Positions 7,260 through 44,882 of a stretch of DNA of 64,000 bases are shown piece by piece (position 1 is the first letter of the stretch; each line of letters starts with the position of its first letter). The position numbers and the translations under genes were made by a program. A model generated the notes under the pieces. That model was not told the origin of the DNA, did no database searches, and worked only from the letters and a program-made list of their open reading frames with translations. The DNA comes from an uncultured Desulfobacteraceae bacterium (GTDB taxonomy: Bacteria > Desulfobacterota > DSM-4660 > Desulfatiglandales > B25-G16): the NCBI GenBank assembly GCA_964611035.1, contig CAZSWT010000012.1, forward strand, positions 89-64,088, in the 5' to 3' direction.

Positions 7260-8288
7260 ACTATGATAGATTTTAGGTTGTAAGGAAGTCCCTCAAGGGT
7301 TAATAAACCCGAAGATAAAAATCTTTAAAAAGGAGGAACTTCCTATGGCAATTAAAGTAAAGAGAAGCAAGATTAATTTCAAGGGAAAAATGGTTAACAT
7401 TGGTATCGACATGCATAAAAAATCCTGGCGAATCACTGCCCTTGTTGAAGGGGATATAGTTATGGCTGTAACACTTGCCAGGCCAAACTATGATTCTTTC
7501 AAGAAATTACTGGTTCAGTTTTTAGGCAATTACGTGCGCATAGTTTACGAAGCCGGTCCTGGTGGATTCGACCTATATGACAGGCTTACAGATGATGGCG
7601 TTGAATGCATTGTTACTCCTCCGTCCTTGATCCCCACCGCGAGCGGATCTAAGGTCAAAACAGATAAAAAGGATAGTTACAAGCTGGCCAGGCTGCTTGA
7701 AAGCAATATGCTTAAGCAAGTATGGGTCCTTTCTCCTGAAGAAAGGGCTCACAGGCAGTTGGCAAGGACCAGACGGCAGATAGTTAATCATCGTTCAGAT
7801 GTCATGCGCCAGATCAAGAGCCTGCTCTTGTTTCACAGCATCGAAATCCCTTTCTCAAGTCGCCAGCAGTGGACTGGGCCTTTTACAAAATGGCTTCATG
7901 GGCTCGATCTTGGCGATGAATACCTCAACAAATCACTTGAGGCCTTGATCAAGCTTTTCGATTATCTGAGCATTGAGAAAAAGAGCCTGACCCACGAGGT
8001 CATTAAACTGGCCAGGGAAGAAAAATATGCATCAAGGGTAAAGCTCCTTAAAAGTGTACCTGGTATCGGGGCATTGAGCGCTATGGAGATCCTGGTTGAG
8101 CTTCAGGATATCGCTCGTTTTAAAACAGCCGATGAGCTTGCTGCCTACCTTGGCTTGACACCATCTCAACATTCTAGTGGAGAGCATACCAGAATGGGAC
8201 ATATAACCCATGCAGGCAATGATAGGGTAAGAACCACGCTGGTTGAATCCTCCTGGATCTTGATTGGAAAGGATCCTGAAATAAAAAA
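7260..8288 (+). mobile_element. IS110-family insertion sequence (minimal extent; the right boundary could instead be 8500)
   Basis: The flanks TAGTATAG| and |GAAATCCC rejoin to the sequence seen at the uninterrupted unit junction at 8501-8516. There is no target duplication. The element carries a DEDD-type transposase. Confidence 0.75.
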
Positions 8289-8334
8289 GAAATCCCATTT
8301 TTTAGACAGGATAGACGGGATGTTCAGGATATAA
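7345..8334 (+). CDS. IS110-family (DEDD / Transposase_20) transposase; the C-terminal 14 codons are read from the flanking repeat
   Basis: Motifs NIGIDMHKKSW, YEAGPGGFDLYDRL, KTDKKDSYKLARLL and LKSVPGIGALSAMEILVELQDIARFKTADELAAYLGLTPSQHSSGEH. The tail SHFLDRIDGMFRI* is encoded by repeat-unit sequence. Confidence 0.85.
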   Translation: MAIKVKRSKINFKGKMVNIGIDMHKKSWRITALVEGDIVMAVTLARPNYDSFKKLLVQFLGNYVRIVYEAGPGGFDLYDRLTDDGVECIVTPPSLIPTASGSKVKTDKKDSYKLARLLESNMLKQVWVLSPEERAHRQLARTRRQIVNHRSDVMRQIKSLLLFHSIEIPFSSRQQWTGPFTKWLHGLDLGDEYLNKSLEALIKLFDYLSIEKKSLTHEVIKLAREEKYASRVKLLKSVPGIGALSAMEILVELQDIARFKTADELAAYLGLTPSQHSSGEHTRMGHITHAGNDRVRTTLVESSWILIGKDPEIKKKSHFLDRIDGMFRI

Positions 8335-35370: not shown

Positions 35371-35806
35371 TTATTACTCCCTTTTCTTGATGAAGTCGTT
35401 AAATCGTTGAGTTATTAAATTGTTTACCCCTCAACAACAGACTGCGGACAATAGCCAACTGATATCCTATGCCCAAATCTTTTTAGGTTTTTAACATAAT
35501 TAACTTTTTTTTGCCATATCAATTTAGGCATATCTTTTAAAGAGTTGAATTTTGCAAAATTTTTAAATCCTTGCCAAGTTTTTTATTTGACTTTATTATA
35601 TTTAATTGGATTAGATTAAGGCCTTGCTATTTTTTTAAGGATTTAGATTTCTGATGATCTTCAATAATTTTTTGCGGTGGCAACCTTGTTCCCCTTGGTG
35701 GACAAAATATATTGGAAGCGGCTGTATGGTGTAAGGCGGTTATTTATGGCCCCTTAATGGAGGATTTCTTAGAAGCCAAGGCATTATTAGTTCACCCAGA
35801 GGGATG

Positions 35807-35883
35807 TATATCCGAACATGGTTCGTATATACGCCTAAATTGGAAGGATATCAGAACCTATTTCGGATATAAACGAGTTATAT
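35807..35883 (+). other. Degenerate attC-like site at the head of the cassette array
   Basis: TATATCCGAA...TTCGGATATA stem followed by AACGA-GTTATAT. The 5' AAC box is missing. Confidence 0.35.
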
Positions 35884-35907
35884 GAAATAGCCCTAAGGTG
35901 AGATAAA

Positions 35908-36378
35908 ATGCTTCCAGATTTACTAAAGAGAAATTTGCGCGTTGTGATTTGTGGAACTGCTGTCGCTAATTATTCTGCAAAAGTGGGTTCATATTATGCG
36001 GGTGCCGGCAATAAATTTTGGCGAGTCCTTTTCGAGGTTGGATTAACACCCGTTATGCTGAACTCGAAAGATTATCAGAAACTGCTTAAATACGGGATCG
36101 GACTTACAGATCTGGCTAAAAATAAAGCTGGTCCCGATAGTAAGATTCCCTCTCATGCTTTCGATATTGAAAGATTCAAGAAAAAGATACAGGATTGTCG
36201 CCCGAAGGTAGTTTGTTTCAACGGCAAGAAAGCCGCTAAAATTTATCTGCGTAAAAAATATGTTGAATTTGGGTTACAGAAAGAACAGATCGAAAGTACC
36301 CATCTTTTTGTTGCACCGTCCACGTCAAGGGCGGCAAACCGCTGGTGGGATCAAAAATGGTGGCAAGAGATTTTATAA
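35908..36378 (+). CDS. mug: G/U mismatch-specific uracil-DNA glycosylase (Mug, UDG family 2)
   Basis: LRVVICGTAV...GNKFWRVLFEVGLTP parallels the E. coli Mug N-terminus as I recall it. Confidence 0.7.
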   Translation: MLPDLLKRNLRVVICGTAVANYSAKVGSYYAGAGNKFWRVLFEVGLTPVMLNSKDYQKLLKYGIGLTDLAKNKAGPDSKIPSHAFDIERFKKKIQDCRPKVVCFNGKKAAKIYLRKKYVEFGLQKEQIESTHLFVAPSTSRAANRWWDQKWWQEIL

Positions 36379-36398
36379 AGAAATGAATGGGCTACTTC

Positions 36399-36487
36399 AT
36401 ATAACACAGCATAAAAGGTTCGTGCCTTACGGCACTCACCTAAATTTTTGCTTCGCAAAAACTTCTTCGATGCTGGGAACGTTATAC
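36399..36487 (+). other. attC-like site 1
   Basis: ATATAAC-ACAGCAT...ATGCTGGGAAC-GTTATAC with two internal hairpins (GTGCC/GGCAC and TTTTTGC/GCAAAAA). Confidence 0.6.
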
Positions 36488-36516
36488 GACATAAAAATAA
36501 TTTACAGGACAAAAAG

Positions 36517-37128
36517 ATGGACGAACTAGAAGAAACGTATTCAAAACTTACCGATAATGAACTCTTGATTATGGTATACTTTGAGAGTTCAGACTATAAT
36601 GAAGAAGCGATTAAAATTGCTAAGTCAATTTTGGATAAGAGAGGATTAGGTCAACCATCAGATGAAATTTTGCAGCAGGCTAAAAACTATCATAGTCAGC
36701 TGAAGGAATCGCAAAAAGATCAATTTGCAGAAAAAATCCAATCCCGTGATGTGTTTAGATTTGGAAAATTAAAACAGGCATTTAAAGAAAAAAATTATTA
36801 TTTTATTGGTAAATTGTCGTTTTGGTTTGTAATCGGTTATGGTCTTTACTCTGGTTTAAGTATTGGCAGTGGCAGGGGAAAGTGGATTGAACTAATTCCC
36901 TTTGCAGAAACAATTAAATCAGAATGGCTATTTATCCTAGAAGTAGTTTTCAATATTGCCATCCTTGGAATATTTCCTATTATCTTTTTCATTATATATA
37001 GCCTGAAACTTTCGCAAGAACAGAGAAAAGAGCGGAGATTATCTTTGCTTATGCCGAAATATATCTTTTTCATTTATGGAATTTCGTTGTTTCTTTTTTT
37101 TGTTCTTGTTATTTTGCCAAGATTGTGA
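36517..37128 (+). CDS. Hypothetical membrane protein (cassette gene)
   Basis: I prefer the ATG at 36517, because the track start at 36448 lies inside the attC-like site. Soluble N-terminus plus 3-4 TM segments. Confidence 0.5.
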   Translation: MDELEETYSKLTDNELLIMVYFESSDYNEEAIKIAKSILDKRGLGQPSDEILQQAKNYHSQLKESQKDQFAEKIQSRDVFRFGKLKQAFKEKNYYFIGKLSFWFVIGYGLYSGLSIGSGRGKWIELIPFAETIKSEWLFILEVVFNIAILGIFPIIFFIIYSLKLSQEQRKERRLSLLMPKYIFFIYGISLFLFFVLVILPRL

Positions 37129-37138
37129 TTTTTACGTC

Positions 37139-37218
37139 GCCTAACAGCGGATAAAAGGGAAATCAAAGATTTCCCAAAATTGCCTTCGGCAATTTCTTTT
37201 ATCCGCAAAACGTTATAT
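37139..37218 (+). other. attC-like site 2
   Basis: GCCTAAC-AGCGGATAAAAG...CTTTTATCCGC-AAAAC-GTTATAT with internal hairpins GGGAAATC/GATTTCCC and AAATTGCC/GGCAATTT. Confidence 0.65.
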
Positions 37219-37251
37219 GAAATTGCTGTTAATTAAGGGAAAGGAGATATT

Positions 37252-37797
37252 ATGAACAAAAAATCTTTTTATCCATTGTTAGTAACTGGATTGGCCATCT
37301 TAGGAATGCTTACAGGGAGCTGTAGTAAAGCTCCAAATCCTAATCCAGCACCAAAGAAACCGAGTACTATGACAATTTCTGAAGGGAAAATTACCATAGA
37401 GATAAAGGCAGAAGGAGGGACTTTATATTACTTTGAGAAAAAAAGATGGGCTGCGAATGAATCCCCAGAGCTAAAAGAAAAAGATAAATTTAGATCTAAC
37501 CAAATTGAAAAATTTAAGGCAACCTATCGGGTAAATGCTGCCAATTTTAATGTAGAGATTGATAAAGAGGAAAAAACAACTGACTTGAAATGTAATATTT
37601 ATGTTAAATTTGATACCTGGTATGACTTTCACTGGTTTCTGAGGCCTCTTGGCCTTGATTTTATAGATAATCATTTTGAAAGAAGAGAAAAAGAGTTATC
37701 ATGGAAAGGGTGTTTGGATGGGGTTAAGACGACTATTCTGCTTAAATTTCCATTTAGGATTAATAATTGTCATGCACATGTCTGGCCAGCGAGATAA
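37252..37797 (+). CDS. Hypothetical lipoprotein (cassette gene)
   Basis: Signal peptide ending LTGSC. No family recognised. Confidence 0.5.
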   Translation: MNKKSFYPLLVTGLAILGMLTGSCSKAPNPNPAPKKPSTMTISEGKITIEIKAEGGTLYYFEKKRWAANESPELKEKDKFRSNQIEKFKATYRVNAANFNVEIDKEEKTTDLKCNIYVKFDTWYDFHWFLRPLGLDFIDNHFERREKELSWKGCLDGVKTTILLKFPFRINNCHAHVWPAR

Positions 37798-37799
37798 AA

Positions 37800-38030
37800 A
37801 TGATAGTAGTAAAATGTGCTCAATGCAAAGGGAAAATCTTCAAATATCAAAAGATTGGGAAAGGTCGATTATGGCACTGCTGGAAGGAGCGAATAATCGA
37901 GGATTATAGTATTAGAGATGGAAATAAAGTTAAATGCCAATGCGGTAATCTAATTGGTATTGTTGAAGGAAAATGGATTAAGATGAGGCAGCATTCTTTT
38001 ACCCACTCAGGGGCAATAACAAAAAAATAG
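37800..38030 (+). CDS. Small zinc-ribbon-like protein (76 aa)
   Basis: CAQC...CQC pairs. The ATG at 37800 lies just downstream of the lipoprotein stop. Confidence 0.4.
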   Translation: MIVVKCAQCKGKIFKYQKIGKGRLWHCWKERIIEDYSIRDGNKVKCQCGNLIGIVEGKWIKMRQHSFTHSGAITKK

Positions 38031-38039
38031 GAGGTAAAA

Positions 38040-38678
38040 ATGAAGGTCACTATTGTTTATGACAACACTGTTTACCAAAGAGGCCTCAAATCCGATTGGG
38101 GCTTTTCTTGCCTTGTAGAAGTAGAGAAGACGCCGAGAATTCTTTTTGACACGGGGACAAATGGTTCTATACTTCTTTCAAATATGCAAAAACTTAATAT
38201 CGATCCTACTTCTATCGATGAAGTTTTCATTTCCCACCCCCATTTTGATCACATTGGTGGACTTTCTGATTTCCTCCAGGTGAACAGGGAAGTCAAGATT
38301 TATATCCCCACTTCCTGTCCCAAGCCTTCTGGAGCAAAGGAGGTAGTTAGCATTGGACAGCCCCTTCAAATCCACGAAAATATCTCCTCTACTGGCGAGC
38401 TCGATGGTATAGAACAGAGCATGGCGGTCAAAATGGATAAGGGAATAGTAATGGTCGTAGGATGCTCCCACCCAAAAATGGAGCATATTCTACAGGCAGC
38501 TTCTCAATTTGGTAAAGTTTATGGTATTATAGGAGGATTGCATGGAAATAGGCCTGAATCCTTGAAGGACTTGGATTTGATTTGTGCGACCCATTGTACT
38601 CAATATAAGTCAGAGATAAAGTCTCTCTATCCGGAGAAATATATTGAAGGTGGAGCAGGAAGAGTAATTGAAATTTAA
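38040..38678 (+). CDS. MBL-fold metallo-hydrolase (COG1237-like)
   Basis: HPHFDHIGG metal motif. GGAGG upstream of the ATG. Confidence 0.8.
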   Translation: MKVTIVYDNTVYQRGLKSDWGFSCLVEVEKTPRILFDTGTNGSILLSNMQKLNIDPTSIDEVFISHPHFDHIGGLSDFLQVNREVKIYIPTSCPKPSGAKEVVSIGQPLQIHENISSTGELDGIEQSMAVKMDKGIVMVVGCSHPKMEHILQAASQFGKVYGIIGGLHGNRPESLKDLDLICATHCTQYKSEIKSLYPEKYIEGGAGRVIEI

Positions 38679-38679
38679 T

Positions 38680-39510
38680 ATGAATCTCAAAATCTTAATT
38701 TTAATCGGAATCTTAATTTTGACAGGGACAGGAATTTGTTTTTAAATTCAAGCTGAAAAAGCAACTTCGCCAGAAATTTCTATTGAATCAGAAAAAGAAG
38801 AAAAACCAGAAATAACCTTAATTTCGGTTTATGATAACTGCCAGGTAGATCCCGATCTGAAAACTGCATGGGGTTTTGGATGCGTGATAAAAACCCCTAA
38901 AGAACTAATATTGTTTGATACCGGGGGAAATTCAAAGATTTTGCTTTTCAATATGGAGAAGATGAATATCAATCCCAAATCAATTAATAAAGTAATTATT
39001 TCTCATATTCATGGAGATCGTGTGGGGGGATTAGAAGGATTTTTAGAGAAAAATAGTAATGTTACCGTCTTTATTCCAAGTTTCCTTCCTAATTCCTTTA
39101 GAGATATGATAACCAGTCAAGGAGCTGAATTTGTAGATGTTTCAGTCCCTAGAAAAATTTCTGATTTTATTTATACCACTGGAGAACTTTATGGACCTCC
39201 AAAAGAGCAATCTCTAATTATAGATTCAAAAAAGGGCTTAATAGTTATTACTGGGTGTGCTCATCCTGGAGTTGTAAATATTGTTAAAAAAGCCAAAGAA
39301 TTGATGAAAAAAGATAATGTATATCTTGTTATAGGGGGTTTTCATCATCCTCCTATAGCTGTAGTTAAAAAGTTTAGAGAACTTGGAGTAAAAAAAGTTG
39401 CACCATCTCATTGCACAGGTGATTTAGTTAGAGAGGCATTTAGAGAAGAATATAAAGAAGATTTTATAGAATACGGAGTAGGAAAAACAATTGAGATTAA
39501 AAATAATTAA
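38680..39510 (+). pseudogene. Secreted MBL-fold paralog interrupted by an in-frame TAA (38743-38745)
   Basis: ATG at 38680 gives the signal peptide MNLKILILIGILILTGTGICF, then TAA. The same frame continues IQAEK...ITLISVYDNCQVDPDLKTAWGFGCVIKTP, homologous to the N-terminus of 38040-38678 and upstream of the track's GTG at 38884. Confidence 0.6.
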
Positions 39511-39542
39511 AATGTGTTTAATATATCTTCGTTCGCACTATC

Positions 39543-39630
39543 GCCTAACAGCGGATATGAAGTTTCAGCCTTCGGCTTTCGCCCAAATACTCTCTACGCT
39601 CGGCCTTCTCATATCCGCGAACCGTTAATT
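39543..39630 (+). other. attC-like site 3
   Basis: GCCTAAC-AGCGGATATGAAG...CTTCTCATATCCGC-GAACC-GTTAATT. Same class as site 2. Confidence 0.65.
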
Positions 39631-39656
39631 GAAATGGAAGCAAAAGCAGGACAGCG

Positions 39657-40661
39657 ATGATGAACATAGATTTCATTATGACTAGGACGAAAATTTGGTG
39701 GGACGCTGCAAGGTGGTTGGCACTCCCACAATCAGCAATGGCCTGCGCCGTTGGCGGGCTCATTGCCTTCTACCATGGCAAGTTTGATCCGCTACTGTTT
39801 CTGGTCACATTCGCTGGCCTGGTGGCAGTTCATCTCGGCACGAATCTGCTGGATGACTACGCTGACTTAAAAATTGGTGGTTTTTCCATTCGAAATAAGG
39901 TTCAGCAGGCAGGCGATACTGTGCGCACTGAAAAGGCACCTTATGTCATCAACGGCACCATCAAGCTCGATCACGTACTCTACGTTTCATTAGGGCTTTT
40001 CGCACTCGGCCTGCTAGCTGGCGCTTATCTCACGGCAATATCTGGCTGGCCAGTTGCAGCTATAGCTGCCGCTGGAGCGTTCTTTTGCTTTTTCTACTCT
40101 ATGCCACCCGTAAAACTATGCTACCGCGGCATGGGAGAAGTGGCCGTAGCCTTCTCATTCGCGATGACATGTGTGGGCACTTACTACGCCGTGGCACAAA
40201 GCTTTAGTTGGGAGCCGGTTTTCATCTCGGTGCCTATCGGCATCATGGTTGGCCTGATCCTTTACGTCCATTCCATAATGGATTTTAAGCCCGACCTTGC
40301 GGTCAAAAAAAGAACCCTGGTTATGGTCCTTGGTAATCAGCAAAAGGCCATACGGTTACTGCCGCTGGCATTTGTAATAGCTTATGGTTCCATTATTGGC
40401 GGCATAGCGATGGATATCTTGCCGCTCACTACCCTTTTGACACTCCTAAGCATTCCTATGGCAATTAAGCTTGCGCAGCTTATGCGCCGGATAGGACAGG
40501 GTGATTATGAGGTCAAGCGGACTTGGTGGATGGGGCCCATGGAGAGCGGTTTAGTGGAAATAGGACAGTGGTTTATGGTTCGATGGTATCTGGCACGCAA
40601 CCTGATGGTAGCCACTACCCTGCTAATATTTGCTGCGTATATTATAGCGTTAGTCTTTTAG
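39657..40661 (+). CDS. UbiA-family (MenA-like) aromatic prenyltransferase
   Basis: 8-9 TM segments and the Asp-rich NLLDDYADLK motif. Confidence 0.8.
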   Translation: MMNIDFIMTRTKIWWDAARWLALPQSAMACAVGGLIAFYHGKFDPLLFLVTFAGLVAVHLGTNLLDDYADLKIGGFSIRNKVQQAGDTVRTEKAPYVINGTIKLDHVLYVSLGLFALGLLAGAYLTAISGWPVAAIAAAGAFFCFFYSMPPVKLCYRGMGEVAVAFSFAMTCVGTYYAVAQSFSWEPVFISVPIGIMVGLILYVHSIMDFKPDLAVKKRTLVMVLGNQQKAIRLLPLAFVIAYGSIIGGIAMDILPLTTLLTLLSIPMAIKLAQLMRRIGQGDYEVKRTWWMGPMESGLVEIGQWFMVRWYLARNLMVATTLLIFAAYIIALVF

Positions 40662-40673
40662 TGAGGAGGCCAC

Positions 40674-41588
40674 ATGTTTGAGTTAGCGCACTATGCAGCA
40701 TGGTATGCCAAGTGTCGTTTATTGGGTAAAAGGTTACCAATCCAGTCGGTTGTTTTCATCACCACACGCTGCAACTTGAAATGCAAGCACTGTATATTTG
40801 CTAAGGGCGTGGCTGAAGGCACACTTAAGGCAGAGGATTTTACCTTTTCACATGTTATGGACTTACTGAGGCAATGCTATGACGCCGGCTCACGGATGGT
40901 CACCTTTGAGGGTGGTGAGCCACTTCTCTGGCAGGATGAAGGCCTTTACTTAGAGGATCTGGTCAAAAAAGCCAATAAAATAGGCTTCCTGTCCACTAGC
41001 TACAGTACCAATGGCACTTTCCCCATTCCCAACAGCAGCGCTGACCGTATCTTTGTGAGCCTGGATGGAACGAAAGAGTTCCATGATGAAATACGGGGGG
41101 CAGGAACGTTTGACCAGGTCATGCAGAATATAGTGGAGTCTTCCTACCCTCACATCAGCGTCAATATGGTTGTGAATAATATCAATTGGAAATGTGTCCC
41201 AGATTTGATACACCTTGTAGCTGAAACGAGGAATATCAAAAGCATTTCGATCAATTTTCACACCCCTCACGTGGGGGTGGAGGATTTTTTTCTGCCCTGG
41301 GATAAACGTAAACTGGTGCTTGACCAGGTGATCAAGCTTAAGAAAGAGGGCTATACCATTGCTAACTCGCTAGAAGGTCTGAAACGCATGTACGATAACA
41401 GGTTTACCAAACGCTGTTGGATAACTAACTTTGTCTTACCTGATGGAAAACTCCACCCCCAATGTCCGGGTGCTGAAGAAGGAATCTGTGATAGGTGTGG
41501 CTATGGCATGGGTGCCGAGATGTCGGCTCTATATGATCTTGCGCCGTCTACTATTATAGAGGGGCTAAAACTGTTCTCAAAGCATTGA
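40674..41588 (+). CDS. Radical SAM enzyme, function unknown
   Basis: TTRCNLKCKHC (CxxxCxxC), a C-terminal Cys cluster CPGAEEGICDRCGYG, and GGAGG upstream of the ATG. Confidence 0.8.
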   Translation: MFELAHYAAWYAKCRLLGKRLPIQSVVFITTRCNLKCKHCIFAKGVAEGTLKAEDFTFSHVMDLLRQCYDAGSRMVTFEGGEPLLWQDEGLYLEDLVKKANKIGFLSTSYSTNGTFPIPNSSADRIFVSLDGTKEFHDEIRGAGTFDQVMQNIVESSYPHISVNMVVNNINWKCVPDLIHLVAETRNIKSISINFHTPHVGVEDFFLPWDKRKLVLDQVIKLKKEGYTIANSLEGLKRMYDNRFTKRCWITNFVLPDGKLHPQCPGAEEGICDRCGYGMGAEMSALYDLAPSTIIEGLKLFSKH

Positions 41589-41628
41589 ATAATTAACCTT
41601 TTGAAGCATGAACTCTATCTTGCACTTC

Positions 41629-41709
41629 ACTTAACACGGTGTAAAAGACTCCGCTTCGCTCCGTTCAGATTCGGCTTCGCCGAACTTCTTTTACACCCAA
41701 AACGCTATC
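41629..41709 (+). other. attC-like site 4
   Basis: ACTTAAC-AC-GGTGTAAAAGA...TCTTTTACACC-CAAAAC-GCTATCT. Perfect 11-bp stem. The 3' box has GCT instead of GTT. Confidence 0.55.
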
Positions 41710-41756
41710 TGCTATGCTTATAAATATGAAAGTATGAAAATTATGTGTTATCGTGA

Positions 41757-41882
41757 AAAGGAGGGAATATTCTGGGAGTAATCGATAAGATACGCAAAAA
41801 GGTCATCGACAAGCAGTATGAATGCACAATTCCACACTTCTTTGAAGAGATGGTGCAGTGTTTATGCCCTATAATAATTTAA
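41757..41882 (+). pseudogene. Truncated DUF4258-like toxin remnant
   Basis: The frame reads ILGVIDKIRKKVIDKQYECTIPHFFEEMVQ, then stops early. There is no ATG start. It sits in the usual toxin position upstream of a YgiT-type antitoxin. Confidence 0.35.
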
Positions 41883-41894
41883 GAGGTGATAAAA

Positions 41895-42155
41895 ATGTAT
41901 AATTATGGAAAATGCGAAATCTGTAATACTCCACTCGAGGAGAAGATTATCCAGCAGGACTTTTGGATTAAGGACAAATTGGTAGTGATTGATAAAGTTC
42001 CAGCTGGGGTATGTCCTCAATGTGGCGAAAAAATTGTCAATGCAGAGGTAGGAGAACATATCGCTGAGCTACTTAAGGACAGAACCCGTATAAATAAAGC
42101 ACCTACCATATCTGTTCCACTTATAAAGTATGAATTAGAAACCAGGGCAGTTTGA
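41895..42155 (+). CDS. YgiT-type zinc-finger protein (MqsA-like antitoxin N-domain family)
   Basis: CEICNTPL...CPQCGEK zinc ribbon. AAGAGG upstream of the ATG at 41895. Confidence 0.7.
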   Translation: MYNYGKCEICNTPLEEKIIQQDFWIKDKLVVIDKVPAGVCPQCGEKIVNAEVGEHIAELLKDRTRINKAPTISVPLIKYELETRAV

Positions 42156-42174
42156 GACTGTTTGGACGCACAGC

Positions 42175-42272
42175 AGATAACACATCATATACGCTACCCT
42201 CCGGTCCTTCGCTTGGCATTAGGGGCATTACTCCCTTTGTTTGGAAGGTCGGATATGCTGGGTACGTTATTT
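42175..42272 (+). other. attC-like site 5
   Basis: AGATAAC-ACATCATAT...GATATGCTGGGTAC-GTTATTT. Same terminal class as site 1. Confidence 0.6.
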
Positions 42273-42390
42273 GCGTTGGCCCCTATATATCAAATTAATT
42301 ATTGAAAAGGGGAAAGAGGAGATATTTAGCATGCAGGAAGGGCTGTTTGCTGAACGCTGATCGCTTACGATATTCTAAGGTAAAGCAAAC

Positions 42391-44320: not shown

Positions 44321-44373
44321 TAATTCTTAATCCATCTCATTCCATGACTATGAGTGCTCCGGTCAACAATTTT

Positions 44374-44660
44374 GGATCTTCTCCAAATTAGTTGGTCAAG
44401 ATTAAGGCTTAAATCTTATTTGATTAATGATTTCAGTAGGTATAGCTTTTAAAAGCAACTCCGATAATGGGTACCTACCAGGCTCATCATAGCAGTTGCC
44501 TATAAAAGTAATTTCCTGTTAATACTTAATTTCTGGAGTAACATTATCACCTAACAATATGGCCTAATTAATCAAAAAGGTTAATGGTGAAATTACATTT
44601 AATTTCAATATGTTGTATTTTGGTAAATCATTTTTCTACCAACTAATTTGGAGAAGAACC
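44374..44660 (-). mobile_element. 287-bp MITE, copy 2 (reverse orientation)
   Basis: Reverse complement of 24577-24863, apparently identical by eye. Flanked by direct ACAATTTT (44366-44373 and 44661-44668). Confidence 0.85.
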
Positions 44661-44882
44661 ACAATTTTAAACTTTATCCTGATTGGTATTTTTACATTCA
44701 TTCATCTTTATTGTTCCAAATCCTTAACATGTTTGCAGTTGTTATTACTTGCCTTAATATTCGTAGCTTGCGTCGTAGCCGCAGCATGGGCTTGGTATGA
44801 AACGGCCGAAAATTATTATATCCATCTTACAGCAACTTATGATGAAGTAACTAAAAAAGACCATCCTAAAGAGGAGCAATAA
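44610..44882 (+). CDS. Small 2-TM hypothetical protein; the start codon and first 17 codons come from the MITE
   Basis: ORF track. The hydrophobic segments lie outside the MITE. The start is questionable. Confidence 0.3.
   Translation: MLYFGKSFFYQLIWRRTTILNFILIGIFTFIHLYCSKSLTCLQLLLLALIFVACVVAAAWAWYETAENYYIHLTATYDEVTKKDHPKEEQ

Follow-up and report, generated by a model that had tools for sequence, protein, structure and literature searches.

Combinations of UbiA-type prenyltransferases with radical S-adenosylmethionine (SAM) enzymes are known from the futalosine pathway, from the archaeal tetraether lipids, and from bacteriochlorophyll. In the futalosine pathway, for example, which is a quinone route of anaerobes, the radical SAM enzymes MqnE and MqnC are combined with the UbiA-type prenyltransferase MqnP, and in the archaeal case a UbiA-family enzyme (DGGGPS) builds the lipid, the isoprenoid chains of which are modified by radical SAM enzymes, such as Tes/GDGT-MAS and GrsA/B. 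The present analysis deals with a pair of genes from the same two superfamilies, found in a 64,000-nt stretch of DNA from an uncultured Desulfobacteraceae bacterium (contig CAZSWT010000012.1; the whole of this stretch is referred to here as the window), where the two genes lie one behind the other on an integron-type cassette.

This pair shares with the described systems the use of both enzyme types and differs from each of them. The futalosine pathway needs many more genes, whereas only two conserved genes, with a smaller radical SAM protein, are present here. Tes has approximately 500 aa and carries further clusters, whereas the radical SAM protein of the window reaches 43.8 bits against a cut-off of 450 for the Tes model, and the UbiA protein is not DGGGPS-like by sequence. 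The DNA around the genes, in turn, resembles integrons and clusters of attC sites lacking integrases (CALIN), i.e., it has cores of the type RYYYAAC...GTTRRRY, L boxes that pair and leave a spacer unpaired, and sites of 80-100 nt that follow co-oriented open reading frames (ORFs), although the cassette’s own attC site has a GCT core. Most integron cassettes hold a single ORF, whereas this cassette is a two-gene operon.

It is very probable that the segment 39625-41704 is a horizontally acquired integron-type cassette with a self-contained, co-inherited two-enzyme operon, a judgement that takes the cassette, its mobility, and the conservation of the pair jointly. The best overall explanation, in which the mobile cassette and the conserved pair are joined to the tailoring of a quinone-like lipid, is given a probability of roughly 0.55. 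Neither of the two enzyme superfamilies is new, and the remarkable point is their tight, co-evolving pairing, which is a testable lead and not an established novelty.

The cassette and its attC sites

Five repeats (sites A to E; Table 1) sit directly 3' of co-oriented ORFs, and have in common TAAC...GTTA cores and an 11-bp L-box stem, with an unpaired 5-nt spacer on the 3' side only. When the five sites are aligned, 90.5% of the cells pair, as against at most 48% with slid partners, and the changes found at seven of the 11 L-box pairs affect both sides, i.e., they are compensatory; these pairing values were reached by none of 500 shuffles. A covariance model was trained on these sites and is narrow, given that all five belong to a single array; it scores its own sites at 69-89 bits and finds no further match in the 64 kb. 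An earlier scanner, based on AAC/GTT and the complementarity of the arms, was dropped because shuffled sequences matched as often as the window, and the covariance model was used in its place.

The limits of the cassette follow from two of these sites. Site C closes the preceding cassette, and the G|TT of its core is the start of the cassette that holds the UbiA and radical SAM genes, of which site D (DNA fold z = -3.05) is the own attC. The inverse core sites, R'' and R', conform at site C, and are one base off at site D, where GCT stands for GTT. Of 17 bases at the start of the cassette, 14 can pair with the R'' end of site D, as read off the sequence, and in the first cassette of the array the start (35877-35893) and the R'' end of its own attC (36389-36405) show 94% complementarity across 17 nt, as would be expected of cassettes that can circularise. 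The first-pass annotation had placed the segment at 39631-41709, which is right within a few bases, the exact cassette being 39625-41704, and both of the ORFs that it had described are present and intact, with NLLDDYADLK in the UbiA protein, and CNLKCKHC and CPGAEEGICDRCGYG in the radical SAM protein. Only 12 nt separate the stop codon of the UbiA gene from the ATG of the radical SAM gene, which is preceded by a GAGGAGG ribosome-binding site.

No integrase was found among the ORFs of the window in the Pfam scan. A complete integron would have intI, attI, and Pc beside the array, and the flanks found here are yebC-ruvCAB on one side and kpsF on the other; given this, the array is classed as an integrase-less, CALIN-like attC cluster. 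An inverted repeat upstream of the first cassette (35807-35871) resembles one half of a degenerate attC in which the R'' core is missing.

The RuvB protein, with 96% identity to that of a “Desulfobacteraceae bacterium”, puts the host among Desulfobacteraceae-like Thermodesulfobacteriota. Close relatives of the host provide an empty site. In two of them (L096 and L097, with RuvB 97% and 94% identical), yebC and kpsF are adjacent, some 580 nt apart, with no array between them, and the homology of the flanks ends at 35380 and resumes at 42371 of the window. The covariance model, narrow as it is, detects no attC in these relatives. The absence of the array between yebC and kpsF in such close relatives means that the whole array is accessory DNA in the lineage of the host. 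The only intergenic patch kept in common with the empty-site relatives is 35561-35630, which contains the promoter-like site of Table 1; this may be a putative former kpsF promoter, now driving the co-oriented cassettes as well as kpsF.

A second copy of the cassette was found in a 3,083-nt contig of a Logan sequencing-run assembly (L098), which has the same two genes at 86% nucleotide identity over 39619-41727 of the window. The homology extends from the upstream attC, where it begins with the R' core, to approximately 17-23 nt past the R' core of the downstream attC, and the cassettes upstream of the pair are unlike those in the window. The covariance model detects three attC sites in this contig, all outside of its training set (46.5-55.2 bits), two of which (47.9 and 55.2 bits) bracket the gene pair. 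Since this cassette is also bracketed by attC sites in a second array, the pair moves as one unit, and the single mobile two-gene cassette proposed in the first-pass annotation is borne out by this recurrence, together with the bounding attC sites in the window. The downstream attC of the second copy is the homologue of site D and has an intact core, GTTGTCT, so the core in the window changed to GCT at a later time. The window copy may no longer be excisable alone, and is perhaps fused to the following cassette through the GCT core (41704-41710). In the proposed mechanism, the cassette would move by attC recombination, with an integrase encoded elsewhere. The array that holds it is inserted between the yebC and kpsF genes of a Desulfobacteraceae-like chromosome.

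The segment had also been described as relatively rich in G+C, and this holds as a local contrast, with a GC content of 0.476 in the cassette (0.497 in the UbiA gene and 0.460 in the radical SAM gene, and 0.54 and 0.52, respectively, at third codon positions), as against 0.31-0.41 in the genes of the neighbouring cassettes. It does not hold as a value outside the range of the genome, since core genes have equal values (AcrB, 0.49; aldehyde:ferredoxin oxidoreductase, 0.48) and the cassette lies inside the range of the genes in the window. The mean of the window is 0.41, with a standard deviation of 0.037 among windows of the same size, of which 7.6% match or exceed the cassette. The codon usage, on the other hand, is atypical, with the UbiA gene being the most deviant of 47 ORFs in synonymous codons and the radical SAM gene the seventh. 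Core genes of the window reach the same values, so the GC content by itself says little about a foreign origin, which is established by the empty site in the close relatives.

Table 1. Position of the cassette, its genes, the attC sites, and the promoter-like site in the window.
Feature	Position	Strand	Details
Two-gene UbiA-radical SAM cassette	39625..41704	+	2,080 nt; one integron-type cassette between two attC sites
UbiA-superfamily prenyltransferase, MenA/UBIAD1 clade	39657..40661	+	334 aa; Pfam PF01040
Radical SAM enzyme	40674..41588	+	304 aa; Pfam PF04055
Whole attC array	35877..42272	+	R' half-site GTTATAT at 35877-35883; all cassettes co-oriented
attC A	36398-36487	+	covariance model
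attC B	37138-37218	+	covariance model
attC C	39542..39630	+	R'' GCCTAAC 39543-39549; R' GTTAATT 39624-39630; 88.5 bits; 17-nt identity with site B
attC D, own site of the UbiA-radical SAM cassette	41628..41710	+	R'' ACTTAAC 41629-41635; R' GCTATCT 41704-41710; 71.8 bits
attC E	42174-42272	+	covariance model
Promoter-like site TTGCCA-17-TATTAT	35571..35599	+	consensus scan; upstream of the array, points into the array

Conservation and origin of the gene pair

A genome scan, with one genome per species, was used to collect the 80 best loci, which have 41-83% identity to the radical SAM protein of the window. Of these loci, 72 have a UbiA homologue upstream of the radical SAM gene and in the same orientation, within approximately 400 nt in 71 of them, so the two genes that the first-pass annotation had linked in the window are also found together elsewhere, in several phyla. 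No third gene is conserved, and no other family is common to more than six of the loci. The pairing holds down to 37% identity and is gone at 31% or less. In 71 orthologue pairs, the UbiA and radical SAM proteins have pairwise identities that correlate (r = 0.91), and the nearest relative of both of the window proteins is one and the same locus (L010).

The closest hosts are Dehalococcoidales and other Chloroflexota, and the others include many Bacteroidales (Tannerella, Dysgonomonas, Prevotella, Paludibacter, Candidatus Symbiothrix, and Candidatus Azobacteroides), Thermoguttaceae and other Planctomycetes, Lachnospiraceae (Firmicutes), Adiutrix-like deltaproteobacteria, Zoogloeaceae (betaproteobacteria), and Kapaibacterium. 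The pair is kept even in a metagenome-assembled genome of the endosymbiont type (Candidatus Azobacteroides). A profile of the family recovers 233 clusters (50% identity) at E <=1e-30 among 1.84 billion representatives, and this family is modest in size and widespread.

It might be supposed that two unrelated genes are adjacent by chance and that their GC content is ordinary variation, given that the value of 0.48 falls inside the gene range of the window. Yet the pairing is found in 72 of 80 genomes of several phyla, the two proteins co-diverge, the cassette recurs as a unit in a second array, and the array is missing in close relatives, all of which leaves chance adjacency scarcely credible.

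The simplest reading of the origin of the cassette is that the donor was probably a Dehalococcoidales-like lineage. The closest homologues are found in this lineage, where the GC content of the pair (0.46-0.55 in the Dehalococcoidales and Chloroflexota loci) is equal to that of its flanks (0.47-0.52), and the pair is above its host both in the window (0.48 vs. 0.41) and in the locus L007 (0.46 vs. 0.38). Two of the Dehalococcoidales and Chloroflexota loci have LutB/C-like genes downstream in common. In L007 (8748-10915), a contig of 3.05 Mb, the pair has 59-67% identity and follows a tRNA-Leu(CAG) gene at a distance of approximately 140 nt. Its flanks contain Pfam families that we take to be associated with archaea (DUF1616, HTH_45, and PheRS B5), and this copy of the pair may represent a cross-domain transfer.

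The covariance model, which is narrow, detects no attC around the pair in 32 genome loci or eight metagenome loci, from which it follows that the pair is ordinary chromosomal DNA elsewhere. No close homologue of the pair was found in the plasmid and phage collections.

A sister clade of the radical SAM family (L113-L136, e.g., L115 7980-10155), with approximately 33% identity, comes mostly from human-gut and other metagenome contigs and is never paired with UbiA. In 14 of 14 loci it is followed by a HemN-like class C radical SAM protein of 417 aa, which scores 195 bits against a cut-off of 355 for PRK08629 and 163 against 400 for ChuW/HutW. No description of this second two-gene module was found.

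The two enzymes and their candidate chemistry

The UbiA protein matches its Pfam family at 97 bits (gathering score of 34.2), and has the motifs N62xxD65D66xxD69 and D208xxxD212, which are invariant or nearly so across 29 sequences. The database copy (P0121) begins at the second ATG, at 39660, and has 333 aa. Nine transmembrane helices are predicted, and the AlphaFold2 model has nine long helices, with a pLDDT of 88.7. The closest solved structure by sequence is human UBIAD1 (8djk; E 6e-16), followed by chlorophyll synthase, and UBIAD1 is also at the top of the Foldseek matches of the model, which include DGGGPS (TMq 0.67-0.68) and ApUbiA. The best NCBIfam matches are MenA models throughout, with at most 123 bits, all of them under the cut-off (for example, NF004749 at 123 vs. 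277 and TIGR00751 at 51 vs. 102), and the MenA-like character noted in the first-pass annotation is confirmed by these models and by the structure of UBIAD1. The fold, the number of transmembrane helices, both Asp-rich motifs, and the central Y..G.GE are those of MenA and UBIAD1, which are also the best matches in sequence and structure. The differences are the scores, of no more than 123 bits against cut-offs of 102-555, a family-specific C-terminal extension (WWMGPME...WFMIRWYLARN) that adds the last helix, and the radical SAM gene that is usually next; to our knowledge, a downstream radical SAM gene is not a feature of MenA. The assignment as a MenA equivalog was rejected, as the protein falls under all curated cut-offs, and it is described here as MenA-like only.

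The radical SAM protein matches its Pfam family at 65.2 bits (gathering score of 29.5), and its AlphaFold2 model, with a pLDDT of 94.8, has the radical SAM fold. The C33xxxC37xxC40 (CX3CX2C) motif is invariant, as are C264, C272, and C275 in the C-terminal part, where C248 is present in at least 90% of the sequences. The top Foldseek matches are SuiB, SkfB, CteB, GDGT-MAS, viperin, and MoaA, with TMq of up to 0.65, and the nearest folds are those of SPASM/twitch enzymes. The protein, a candidate member of this group, has in common with these enzymes, and with PTO1314, a partial TIM barrel followed by a Cys-rich C-terminal domain that would be of the auxiliary-cluster type, and differs from them in its single predicted four-Cys cluster, in the lack of a match to Pfam SPASM, and in having no peptide-binding RRE domain. 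The four C-terminal Cys are putative ligands of one twitch-like auxiliary cluster. Their number suggests, by analogy with the twitch dehydrogenases, a fully ligated cluster that relays electrons, which is the role of the auxiliary cluster in BtrN and anSME.

The first-pass annotation had left this enzyme without an assignment, and the curated families agree, given that the best model, the uncharacterised PTO1314 (TIGR03961), gives 75 bits against a cut-off of 306. The identities of MoaA (58 vs. 325), NirJ (56 vs. 515), Tes (43.8 vs. 450), and viperin (42.6 vs. 180) were rejected, as was that of HpnH, the model of which a Bacteroidales orthologue of the protein matches at 25.9 bits against a cut-off of 225. 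MqnC and MqnE are outside the 25 best NCBIfam families. No UbiA-radical SAM fusion was found among the long matches, which are multi-radical-SAM, glycosyltransferase, or oxidoreductase fusions. Four distant relatives (P0437, P0458, P0463, and P0500), of 850-1,300 aa, contain between two and four radical SAM domains in tandem, with GT2 glycosyltransferase or GFO_IDH_MocA oxidoreductase domains as fusion partners.

The curated cut-offs of NCBIfam are reached by neither of the two proteins, and no paper on the pairing came up in full-text literature searches, which is consistent with its having gone unrecognised in the first-pass annotation. The leaning towards a quinone comes from the UbiA protein, every strong match of which is MenA or UBIAD1, and from the conservation in this family of the YxGxGE-type motif of MenA and UBIAD1. 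In the proposed mechanism, the prenyltransferase would use a polyprenyl diphosphate as the donor and transfer its polyprenyl chain, on the cytoplasmic side of the membrane, to an aromatic acceptor that resembles a naphthoquinol, and the radical SAM enzyme would take a hydrogen from this prenylated lipid or its immediate precursor, with the auxiliary cluster acting as an electron conduit. This second step would be an oxygen-independent tailoring, such as a dehydrogenation, decarboxylation, cyclisation, or C-C coupling, and would provide strict anaerobes with a modified membrane lipid of the isoprenoid quinone-like type. The module would draw on ubiquitous precursors only, and would work in this way as a plug-in. 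This specific quinone-tailoring chemistry, predicted from sequence, is tentative, with odds somewhat short of even.

The order of the two steps may also be reversed, with the radical SAM enzyme building or reshaping an aromatic head group from a common metabolite, in the manner of MqnE and MqnC, before the UbiA protein prenylates it. A two-gene module that works after transfer between phyla must use ubiquitous precursors, which is in favour of such a scheme, and in the futalosine route the radical SAM enzymes are placed upstream of the UbiA-type prenyltransferase. In the pair, however, UbiA is usually first in the gene order, the MqnC and MqnE models are absent from the best-scoring families, as given above, and a bicyclic head group is unlikely to come from one small twitch radical SAM enzyme, so the synthesis of the head group is an unlikely role.

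If, on the other hand, the lipid is not a quinone, the radical SAM enzyme may modify the prenyl tail at its unactivated carbons, through C-C coupling, the formation of a ring, or adenosylation, like Tes/GDGT-MAS, GrsA/B, and HpnH. The structure of GDGT-MAS (7tol) is the second-best solved-structure match in sequence, with 54 bits, as well as one of the top Foldseek matches, the Tes model is matched at 43.8 bits, and the model of the UbiA protein resembles DGGGPS at the TMq given above. These scores are far under the cut-offs for both Tes and HpnH, though, and the sequence of the UbiA protein is like that of MenA and UBIAD1 and not like that of DGGGPS, which makes chemistry on the tail a little less probable again than the synthesis of a head group.

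Tetrapyrroles are a third candidate substrate, with the UbiA-type protein esterifying or alkylating a heme- or chlorophyllide-like molecule, as do ChlG and heme O synthase, next to a radical SAM enzyme that would modify side chains like AhbC, AhbD, or NirJ. The radical SAM protein does match the NirJ, AhbC, and AhbD models (43-56 bits), some JGI annotations name it an “Fe-coproporphyrin III synthase”, chlorophyll synthase is the second solved relative of the UbiA protein, and the sister clade is always followed by a HemN-like protein that resembles ChuW/HutW. HemN-like enzymes also methylate menaquinone, however, so this last hint fits the chemistry of heme and of menaquinone alike, and the UbiA protein itself gives 22-25 bits with ChlG, as against up to 123 with MenA, and no match with heme O synthase. 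A role in tetrapyrrole synthesis is quite improbable on this evidence.

Several points weigh against the explanation preferred here, in which a mobile cassette carries a conserved pair that tailors a quinone-like lipid. With regard to the pair, eight of the 80 loci have no adjacent UbiA gene, seven of them lacking one within at least 2 kb and the eighth lying on a contig that is too short. The relatives of the radical SAM protein give mixed hints, as they include peptide maturases, Tes, viperin, MoaA, NirJ, and AhbC, and its N-terminal helix is aromatic-rich and not amphipathic (muH 0.12), with no sign of membrane docking in the protein. The acceptor may not be a naphthoquinol, as both proteins are under all curated cut-offs, and the product, the substrate, and the activity are all predictions made from the sequences. 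Desulfobacteraceae, moreover, make menaquinone, so the pair has no evident benefit to this host. The present-day mobility of the window copy, finally, is uncertain, given that there is no integrase in the window and that site D has the GCT core.

Neighbouring cassettes and implications

The other cassettes of the array have different contents. The first (35877-36487) contains a gene of the uracil-DNA-glycosylase superfamily (35908-36378; PF03167, 61 bits). Between sites B and C (37219-39541) lie four ORFs, all in the same orientation and not separated by attC sites, which encode a lipoprotein-like protein (37252-37797), a small Zn-ribbon protein (~37800-38030), and two proteins of the metallo-beta-lactamase (MBL) fold (38040-38678 and 38884-39510). 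Both MBL proteins are assigned to PF23023, Anti-Pycsar Apyc1, in precomputed Pfam, and a direct Pfam scan gave Lactamase_B-type families only. The last cassette (41711-42272), which adjoins that of the UbiA and radical SAM genes, is probably a toxin-antitoxin cassette; it has a short ORF (~41773-41880) and, behind this, the gene of an antitoxin-like protein with a zinc finger of the YgiT/MqsA type (41886-42155; TIGR03831, 46 bits). Outside the array, an IS110-family transposase (7345-8334; PF01548 and PF02371) lies amid housekeeping genes (mfd, a surA-like gene, and a sigma factor gene), and downstream of a DHDPS-like gene two arms of 29 nt (44368-44396 and 44638-44666), 241 nt apart, form an inverted repeat with 93% complementarity.

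Neighbours of this kind, i.e., the MBL-fold proteins with the Apyc1 match, the uracil-DNA-glycosylase-family gene, and the toxin-antitoxin-like cassette, have the look of a conflict setting, in which a viperin-like radical SAM enzyme might make a toxic or chain-terminating molecule, with the membrane protein as effector or immunity factor, and the radical SAM protein matches the pVip models of PADLOC at 48 bits. This match, however, is a generic similarity of the radical SAM core, given the 42.6 bits against 180 for viperin_w_prok, and PADLOC gave nothing for the UbiA protein. In most genomes, moreover, the neighbours of the pair are housekeeping genes, the pair is kept in the Azobacteroides genome, and no phage or plasmid copies were found, all of which leaves an anti-phage or conflict module very improbable.

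It is possible, if rather doubtful, that the pair specifies an undescribed class of isoprenoid quinone or redox lipid, tailored by radical chemistry without oxygen, and simple enough for its two genes to be traded as a plug-in between phyla, possibly even into the archaeon-like genome of L007, with the integron cassette as one form of this plug-in. The users of such a lipid class would be strict anaerobes, such as Dehalococcoidales, Bacteroidales of the gut and of termites, and Planctomycetes of the rumen, a reading that is to be held just as loosely.

The cassette is of interest in that it carries a complete two-enzyme biosynthetic operon, and not a single accessory gene. The pair occurs in abundant gut Bacteroidales, and, as it is small and has no other conserved gene, it can be tested directly. 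If the reading is true, a new membrane quinone or lipid would be an added component of anaerobic electron transport or membrane biology, and the known reactions of radical SAM enzymes would be joined by a new one that acts on a lipid.

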